DNA from: a phage
Sequence record: AB841352.1
Length of the DNA stretch: 901 bases
Strand: one strand, 5' to 3'
Shown here: positions 1-901 of the stretch, piece after piece
Layout of the letters: each line of letters begins with the position of its first letter
Position numbering within the stretch: position 1 is the stretch's first letter
Notes under the pieces: generated by a model
The model's input: the letters and a program-made list of their open reading frames with translations, nothing else
The model's database searches: none
What the model was told of the DNA's origin: nothing
Translations under genes and position numbers: made by a program

Positions 1-18
1 CTGCCCGCATGCAAGCAT
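1..18. other. Cloning-vector polylinker remnant: degenerate PstI-like site (1-6), intact SphI site (7-12), HindIII-like site with a 1-nt insertion (13-19)
   Basis: Window 1-16 'ctgcccgcatgcaagc' matches the pUC18/19 polylinker end CTGCAGGCATGCAAGC at 14 of 16 positions. 'gcatgc' at 7-12 is exact; 'aagcatt' at 13-19 versus AAGCTT. pUC sequence recalled from memory. Confidence 0.6.
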
Positions 19-36
19 TGTGATATTCATGNTCNT
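1..36 (-). CDS. lacZ: 5' end of lacZ-alpha reading frame (partial; continues leftwards out of the window), degraded
   Basis: Reverse complement of 1-36 is 'aNgaNcatgaatatcacaatgcttgcatgcgggcag', versus pUC19 ATGACCATGATTACGCCAAGCTTGCATGCCTGCAG. Expected start codon at 34-36 is 'aNg' on the minus strand. The M13-reverse primer site (GTCATAGCTGTTTCCTG) corresponds to about 32-48, with 'ctgtttcc' intact at 39-46. Frame is not preserved exactly (1-nt length difference), so this is a remnant. Confidence 0.4.
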
Positions 37-46
37 NACTGTTTCC

Positions 47-146
47 CGAATCTAATTGTTAGGATGACANNTTCNNTNAAGAATTACCTCCTTAAGCACA
101 TAATGTCNGANTGNAATGCCTAATGAGACACCTATNTCNNTGGGTT
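47..146 (-). promoter_or_regulatory. lac operator / lac promoter / CAP-binding site region (vector-borne), degenerate
   Basis: Collinear with pUC19 at offset 0 to +1. 'aattgtta' (54-61) matches one lac operator half-site; the other half is altered. 'aagca' (94-98) and 'gcctaatgag' (118-127) match the promoter/CAP-site segment GCCTAATGAG. The expected -10 (about 80-85) and -35 (about 104-109, 'gtcNga' versus TGTAAA) hexamers are disrupted, so a functional promoter cannot be assumed. Confidence 0.5.
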
Positions 147-149
147 NTT

Positions 150-250
150 TATGCCCTCAATGCCCCCTTTCCACTCAGCAAACATGGCCTGCCNGCAGCN
201 CAATAGAAACTTCTCACACTTGAGGAGAGGCGGTTTGCTCTTGGGCGCTT
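150..250 (-). other. Remnant of the lacI 3'-terminal fragment and lac/pBR322 junction region carried by pUC-type vectors
   Basis: 151-222 aligns without gaps to pUC19 TTGCGCTCACTGCCCGCTTTCCAGTCGGGAAACCTGTCGTGCCAGCTGCATTAATGAATCGGCC at about 70% identity. 224-260 'ggagaggcggtttgctcttgggcgcttgtccgcttcc' matches GGAGAGGCGGTTTGCGTATTGGGCGCTCTTCCGCTTCC. Confidence 0.4.
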
Positions 251-441
251 GTCCGCTTCCATTCCTTGTGACTGGAGCAAATTAAATGACTCACCTTCCC
301 TACTCGACATATGCTCACCCACCAGGTGTGCTGCCTTAATCCCTATAACCGCTTCATCAATGGTGATGAATCNCCCAAGGGTTATGTTTTTACCNNCNAC
401 ATTTATCTGAACTTGCCATTGATTTCTGGCTTGACATAAGC

Positions 442-804
442 TTACCCCCTTGAATCAGCCTTTGCTATTTCGAGGTCCGACATTNNNGCGTTTACCACTC
501 TGCTGACTTCCCAAACGTTTGATATTGCCTTGTTTCCTCTGTTTCGATCTCTGTGGTCNNTNNCTTGTTTGGNCCATTCNCCNNATACNTACNNNCNCTT
601 CAGTCTATGTGCNAAATATCNTANGCNATCACTATTAATTGCGTTATATCCNTAANAAATTGCGCCANCAACTTTCCCGACAGCACNACTGGCGCTTACT
701 TTCTTTTTNCTACTGANNATTCCTGNNTCATTATNGTGATCNAGAACCTCCATNACGCGCTCCCNAGTTACTANNTCNTGACNTCNNTNACTCNNTANTT
801 TCAC
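442..804 (-). CDS. Hypothetical 120-codon ORF from the supplied track; probably spurious (kept open by N-containing codons, overlaps the vector ori)
   Basis: The ORF begins with GTG (rc of 802-804 'cac'), not ATG, after an in-frame TAG (rc of 823-825). 35 of 120 codons contain N. At least nine of these could encode stops: rc codons at 784-786 and 619-621 (Nga, TGA possible), 652-654 and 589-591 (taN, TAA/TAG possible), plus 787-789, 793-795, 592-594, 595-597, 583-585. No recognisable RBS or protein family signature. Only the last 28 codons (rc of 445-528, ending MSDLEIAKADSRG) are nearly free of ambiguity. Confidence 0.1.
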   Translation of the reverse strand: MKXXSXXXXXXVTXERXMEVXDHXNXXGXXSXKKKVSASXAVGKVXGAIXXGYNAINSDXXXYXAHRLKXXXVXXEWXKQXXDHRDRNRGNKAISNVWEVSRVVNXXMSDLEIAKADSRG

Positions 805-833
805 CGNANTGTNTATTATGCGCTANNNATTAT

Positions 834-869
834 ACGACGTGGNNGNCTAACNACNGANACACTNNNNTA
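834..869 (+). promoter_or_regulatory. RNA I promoter region of the ColE1-type origin (-35 degraded, -10 region preserved)
   Basis: 841-863 'ggNNgNctaacNacNgaNacact' versus pUC19 GGTGGCCTAACTACGGCTACACT: 16 of 17 unambiguous bases match. The upstream TTGAAG -35 corresponds to about 834-839 'acgacg' and is only partly preserved. Confidence 0.35.
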
Positions 870-901
870 CTTTANCTCGCTCNTGCAANCTGATGCNNCN
901 G
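870..901 (+). ncRNA. 5' portion of antisense RNA I (copy-number control RNA), partial and degraded; runs off the window's 3' end
   Basis: 868-901 'tactttaNctcgctcNtgcaaNctgatgcNNcNg' is loosely collinear with the start of RNA I, ACAGTATTTGGTATCTGCGCTCTGCTGAAGCCAG, with apparent small deletions. Start position uncertain by several nt. Confidence 0.3.

Follow-up and report, generated by a model that had tools for sequence, protein, structure and literature searches.

The closest described relative of the phage part of this record is Kapi1 (vB_EcoP_Kapi1), a temperate P22-like phage of Escherichia coli MP1, a commensal of the mouse (PMC8787464). The segment of Kapi1 that concerns us here is annotated with an HNH endonuclease on the minus strand and with the start of the tailspike/head-binding protein. 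When searched against Pfam, the endonuclease matched PF13392 (HNH_3, E = 2e-16) and the tailspike matched PF09008 (Head_binding, E = 3e-65). Kapi1 keeps the P22-type tailspike start ATGACAGACATTAC (MTDIT), and its similarity to P22 and epsilon34 ends right after codon 5. What follows that codon (locus L001, 3024-3039) is the minus-strand HNH_3 endonuclease gene (3036-3559), which also gives a sub-threshold AP2-domain match. The functional tailspike, whose N-terminus is different, starts again 535 nt downstream. Judging from the sequence, the 5' end of the Kapi1 tailspike gene is probably either a mosaic joint or a homing-like insertion, placed exactly at the start of the gene. The other close relative is the cloning vector pUC19, with its polylinker, lac control region and pMB1 origin.

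The sequence record AB841352.1 is complete, 901 nt long, written in lower-case letters and includes 86 N calls; we analysed it whole and refer to it as the window. It looks like a low-quality Sanger read. The window as called has no intact long ORF, the longest being 120 amino acids and full of X residues, and it gave no match at E ≤ 1 in a scan against Rfam, RNA I and RNA II included. We propose, with a probability of roughly 85%, that AB841352.1 is one mixed-template Sanger read in which two templates are superimposed: a pUC19-type vector (template A) and a fragment of a P22-like E. coli phage or prophage (template B). The window is a laboratory artefact of an ordinary kind, it does not represent a genuine stretch of DNA as it stands, and it carries no biological novelty.

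Template A was studied with a pUC19 reference rebuilt from PLSDB records with a pUC backbone. One of them (L003) provided agcttggcgtaatcatgg and everything downstream into the origin, and the polylinker of another (L004) provided ctgcaggcatgcaagctt after reverse-complementation. The vector can be followed on the plus strand over the entire window (1-901, approximately pUC19 435-1340), collinearly and with an offset of -1 to +6. It is the source of most calls in 1-260 and a minor signal in 261-901. The PstI-SphI-HindIII polylinker (ctgcaggcatgcaagc) lies at 1-16 with 14 of 16 positions matching, the two mismatches (positions 5-6, "cc") being bases of template B. It adjoins ggcgtaatcatggtcatagctgtttcc in the orientation of pUC19, and is followed collinearly, at 17-260 (approximately pUC19 451-696), by the 5' end of lacZ-alpha, the lac operator/promoter and the pUC backbone up to cttccgcttcc. 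The local alignment of window 1-260 with pUC19 435-696 scored 107, for a maximum of 28 with shuffled sequences. Further downstream, the block of the pMB1 origin described as the RNA I promoter (ggtggcctaactacggctacact, plus strand, 841-863) is found at the collinear distance (offset +5), matching 16 of 17 non-N calls, although only as a minor signal. Gapless diagonal scans retrieved the vector diagonal in every segment of 1-260 and nothing recognisable in 261-700; in 801-901 the vector diagonal was back at the collinear offset of +5 as the top-ranked one (38/79, z = 4.8). The minor vector signal in 261-901 keeps to the expected diagonals.

A previous reading made from the letters alone (the sequence-only reading) had taken the window for a vector read, collinear with pUC19 from the polylinker to the RNA I promoter of the pMB1 origin. 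The collinear signal, its orientation and the order of these elements are confirmed by our alignments and by the fixed-diagonal counts in 261-884 given below. Eight of the ten blocks that it listed were found as described: 1-16 (14/16), 39-46 (8/8), 54-61 (8/8), 118-127 (10/10), 224-238 (15/15), 241-260 (18/20), 313-318 (6/6) and 841-863 (16/17 non-N). The other two were faulty: tgccccctttccac, which had been placed at 165-178, lies at 161-174, and the supposed vector block at 731-737 agrees with the phage template at 6/6 positions and with pUC19 at only 3/6. The expected identity of 60-80% to pUC19 was not observed either, since pUC19 matches 52.5% of the non-N calls overall (70% in 1-260 and 45% in 261-901). 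Instead of one collinear blastn hit spanning approximately pUC19 435-1340, the plain search against 72,556 plasmids reported a single region, window 152-260 (109 nt), at 73% identity with many pUC-backbone plasmids. The contiguous and near-identical match expected of a clean vector read is therefore missing from these comparisons, because the remaining bases come from the second template.

This second template was revealed by blastn against phage genomes. The hit joins window 261-882 to 35018-35640 of Kapi1 (MT813197.1; E = 3e-165), and the collinear match extends to window 884 (Kapi1 35642). An equally good match (E = 6e-166) was found in the chromosomes of 15 of 5426 complete E. coli genomes, whose prophages are identical to Kapi1 in this segment. 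The phage match covers 69% of the window. It is a far better hit than the vector and a natural sequence free of polylinker, i.e., the very result that the sequence-only reading had named as speaking against itself. Over the HNH gene and the tailspike start, window and Kapi1 are collinear along one diagonal, with 73-94% of the non-N calls matching per segment. The remnant of the P22-type tailspike start lies on the plus strand at 286-299, and the similarity to epsilon34 and P22 stops there. The HNH endonuclease gene, a homologue of Kapi1_066, occupies 296-795 on the minus strand, and the start of the tailspike gene, encoding the head-binding domain, lies at 818-884 on the plus strand with its ATG at 818-820. 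The HNH_3-domain ORF is broken in the window: the minus-strand frame at 296-795 has four stop codons and many X residues. This breakage comes from vector-derived calls and Ns, and is uninformative about the underlying template. Only two or three calls in 261-901 fit neither Kapi1 nor pUC19, and hence template B appears to be at least 99% identical to Kapi1 where it is visible.

The phage is also present upstream of 261, as a secondary signal. Among the 73 calls in 1-260 that do not match pUC19, 63 are phage bases. Those in 1-165 follow Kapi1 2815-2975 (L001 coordinates), i.e., the 3' end of the antirepressor gene ant and the terminator, along one slowly drifting diagonal: 11/13 in 1-60 and 17/23 in 61-130 at an offset of +2814/+2815, and 14/21 in the remainder. 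The signal of the ant end was reproduced with an independent E. coli prophage (L005). Template B thus shows the 3' end of ant at 1-110 (plus strand, L001 2815-2925) and, at 128-152 on the same strand, a rho-independent terminator (cccagcttcggctgggttttttt) that is annotated as such in phage epsilon34. The statement that every feature of the window is vector-derived was hence mistaken: the gene-like content at 261-884 and the secondary signal at 1-223 are genuine phage sequence.

Kapi1 itself had to be rejected as a continuous template B. Its register is +2815 before 165 and +2740 after 261, a jump of about 76-78 nt, and neither register accounts for the residual calls in 166-260. The jump arises because Kapi1 has a spacer of 27 nt between the ant terminator and the tailspike leader, and template B one of 105 nt. 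A scan of IMG/VR for the ant terminator and, 88-116 nt further on, the sequence found at window 261 returned 17 phage contigs; in each of them the spacer is 105 nt long, compared with 27 nt in Kapi1. The spacer of the type found in three of them (L013, L014 and L024) accounts for 21 of the 24 non-pUC calls in 166-260, all 21 of which lie in 166-223, and we place it at 158-260 on the plus strand. Another 105-nt type (L017) explains only 16 of these 24 calls, and the spacers of P22, epsilon34, E. coli NRG 857C, ET490, AR_0118, EC06, 30COLEC and GF66.2 fail to fit 166-260. A possible third signal at Kapi1 offset +1261 (16/24, z ~4.4) was dropped as a chance maximum, since the L013-type spacer accounted for the same calls.

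We built a composite reference for template B, named B*, by joining the ant end, terminator and spacer of L013 to Kapi1 from locus position 3001. Its register is continuous over the whole window, with an offset of 34 and then 35 across the joint, 31-35 within 1-260 and 35-37 afterwards, and it matches 87.6% of the non-N calls in 261-901. Since the 105-nt spacer fits the residual calls, template B can be regarded as one continuous, in-register molecule of a P22-like (Lederbergvirus) phage or prophage, running on the plus strand from 1 to 884. The 3' end of ant and the terminator are contiguous with the HNH region only if this spacer variant is assumed. Exact-pattern searches for the combination of long spacer and HNH junction retrieved no contig in IMG/VR (three patterns), in the GTDB species genomes or in the JGI metagenomes, which is why the reference had to be assembled from two sources. 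The chances seem about even that template B comes from an unsampled mosaic P22-like prophage, which would combine the 105-nt spacer with the Kapi1-type HNH endonuclease/tailspike module. The HNH module directly follows codon 5 of the ancestral tailspike gene, a position that agrees with a homing-like event or with a module-exchange joint.

P22-like phages differ in the length of the ant-tailspike spacer, which measures 27 nt in both Kapi1 and epsilon34, 105 nt in the 17 contigs from IMG/VR, and approximately 137 nt in P22 (L009). In the alignment of these spacers (window 158-260, Kapi1 L001 2976-3000, L013 9900-10004 and P22 L009), a direct repeat of some 20 nt (accgtagcc..gctgcggcg) borders the extra segment, within which lies a hairpin (actacgaaa/tttcgtagt). 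Such an arrangement suggests that the segment may be gained or lost via recombination between the direct repeats.

To quantify the superposition we compared every call with both templates in register, using shuffles, reversals and fixed diagonals as decoy controls. Of the 815 called bases, 803 (98.5%) equal the base of A or B as the two references advance base by base: 375 match only B, 167 match only A, 261 match both and 12 match neither. The pUC19 and phage sequences are both present, in register, over the whole read. Replacing A by shuffled sequences leaves about 97 calls unmatched (minimum 86) and replacing B leaves about 200 (minimum 187), compared with 10-12 for the real pair. Within 261-901, 71 non-N calls disagree with Kapi1, and 69 of them (97%) are the pUC19 base at the collinear offset. 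Shuffled pUC19 sequences submitted to the same alignment procedure explain 44% ± 8% of these discordant calls (maximum 59%). At fixed offsets, the non-phage calls equal pUC19 in 17/20 cases at +1 (261-400), in 14/20 at +2 (401-550), and at +5 in 9/10 (551-700) and 16/16 (701-884), for about 25-30% on other or neighbouring diagonals in 261-884. Non-phage calls are thus pUC19 bases and non-pUC calls are phage bases, which shows that two genuine sequences are superimposed. The departures from pUC19 are not noise; they are the bases of the second sequence.

The way in which the calls were made has the marks of a mixed read. N calls occur at 11.9% of the positions where A and B differ and at 4.3% of those where they are the same (Fisher p = 3e-4). 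At the discordant positions, the choice of base follows the order T > C > A ≥ G both in 1-260 and in 261-901, with win rates of about 0.6 for T, 0.5 for C, 0.35 for A and 0.3 for G. This is the kind of base-specific order that dye-specific signal strengths would give. Two sequencing ladders would have been overlaid in one electropherogram, the stronger peak being called at each position, or an N when the peaks were close. Ladder A would stem from an empty pUC19-type vector, starting in the polylinker, crossing the lac region and reaching the pMB1 origin. Ladder B would stem from a P22-like E. coli phage or prophage and comprise the 3' end of ant, the terminator, the 105-nt spacer, the minus-strand HNH gene and the tailspike start; its carrier could be a pUC-type recombinant or another template with a Kapi1-like prophage fragment. 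The mixture may have originated in a mixed colony or plasmid preparation, with empty vector and recombinant clone read from the same primer, or else in cross-talk between lanes or capillaries.

The ratio between the two signals changes along the read. The share of A among the informative calls takes the values 0.68, 0.40, 0.48 and 0.54 up to 223, is 1.00 in 224-260, falls to 0.24 and then to 0.09-0.20, and rises to 0.35 in 801-901. The ratio of A to B is thus about 50:50 in 61-223, 100:0 in 224-260 and about 20:80 from 261 on. Template B supplies a minor to equal signal up to 223, disappears from view in 224-260 and dominates 261-884. The 37 nt of 224-260 comprise 24 A-only calls, no B-only call and no N, with sharp edges at 223/224 and 260/261, while both templates stay in register across them. 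This pure-vector block and the switch at 260/261 are unexpected from a simple constant mixture of two plasmids. We considered a hairpin in pUC19 just past its position 696 as the cause of the signal drop, and its fold did not surpass that of shuffles (z = 0.11); a structure in the spacer of template B behind the loss of B in 224-260 was weakly supported (z = -1.8), and neither fold is strong enough to be a convincing cause. The vector ladder also shifts by some 3 nt with respect to the phage ladder between 261 and 600, the pUC offset going from +1 to +5 and the phage offset changing by only +1. The two ladders are therefore imperfectly co-migrating, and template-specific compressions or skipped minor peaks may have produced the shift.

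The abrupt change of dominance exactly at 260/261, after 37 nt of pure pUC19 calls, and the clean split of the local alignments into vector (1-260) and phage (261-884) would also be expected of a real chimera, in which pUC19 up to about 696 is joined to the phage at 260/261 as the dominant molecule, with weaker contaminants bringing the number of signals to at least three. We regard this as improbable. The pUC19 register persists past 261 (offset +1/+2 before and +1 after) and the phage register persists before it with a natural 105-nt spacer (B* offset 34, then 35); as both continue across 261, two continuous templates suffice and a chimera is unnecessary. A chimera would moreover require that the two extra templates both occur and merely happen to be in register, and inspection of the sequence shows no cloning site at pUC19 696/697, the SapI cut at 690/693 being near but not coincident. 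The same block without any N or B call and with its sharp limits (223/224 and 260/261) could suggest that the record is a consensus or a hand-edited sequence stitched from separate vector and phage reads. This is somewhat less probable still: outside the block the A and B calls alternate base by base, and stitching clean reads would produce neither the base-specific bias nor the enrichment of Ns at discordant sites. At most, such editing could have produced the 224-260 block within a trace that was already mixed.

The sequence-only reading, according to which the window is a low-quality vector read whose differences from pUC19 are all base-calling noise, can draw on the collinear pUC19 signal from 1 to about 884 and on the large number of Ns. 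We give it hardly any credit. It is refuted by the matches to Kapi1 and to E. coli chromosomes together with the accounting of the whole window. The match to Kapi1 over 261-884 has an E-value of 3e-165, and the phage reference outperforms pUC19 there (87.6% compared with 45% of the non-N calls). The non-pUC calls are phage bases rather than random ones, and shuffles in place of B leave about 200 calls unmatched. That reading was right that the window is not native genome and has to be handled as contaminated; what does not hold is the idea of a plain vector read, since vector and phage are mixed. The superposition of two continuous templates remains the reading that we prefer.

We recommend that the record be flagged as an artefact and excluded from any biological analysis. 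The window is neither a diverged natural relative of pUC/ColE1 plasmids nor a phage that has diverged. A simple vector screen would underestimate the contamination, since blastn detects no more than 109 nt at 73% identity. A BLAST search against phages would wrongly present the window as a relative of Kapi1 with 79% identity, although the identity of the underlying template is probably 99% or more. More generally, apparent divergence in a poor read can be tested by asking if the mismatches spell a second known sequence. The pUC/lac backbone segment was also found in many "natural" records of PLSDB and INPHARED, e.g., GQ149342-GQ149348, U36911, OR844963, OR845556 and OR848931, which come from diverse hosts and include giant panda E. 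coli and "phages" of Bacillus, Staphylococcus, Enterococcus and Listeria. Both public collections thus appear to contain sequence derived from vectors.

The comparison with the known sequences can be made for each component. The window shares with pUC19 (L09137) the order, orientation and spacing of elements from PstI (~435) to the region of the RNA I promoter (~1300), and exact runs including ggagaggcggtttgc, gcctaatgag, ctgtttcc and aattgtta, but differs from it in that the called bases match at only 52.5% overall. With the Lederbergvirus Kapi1 it shares the collinear segment 261-884 (35018-35642) and the ant 3' end with its terminator, seen in 1-157 as a secondary signal. It differs from this phage in the spacer, which has the 105-nt form of L013, L014 and L024 instead of 27 nt, and in the HNH ORF, which in the window is corrupted by Ns and vector calls. 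Finally, the window resembles mixed-template (double-peak) Sanger reads in that its calls follow two references in register, Ns fall where the references differ and the choice between them is base-specific, whereas its signal ratio changes stepwise instead of being constant.
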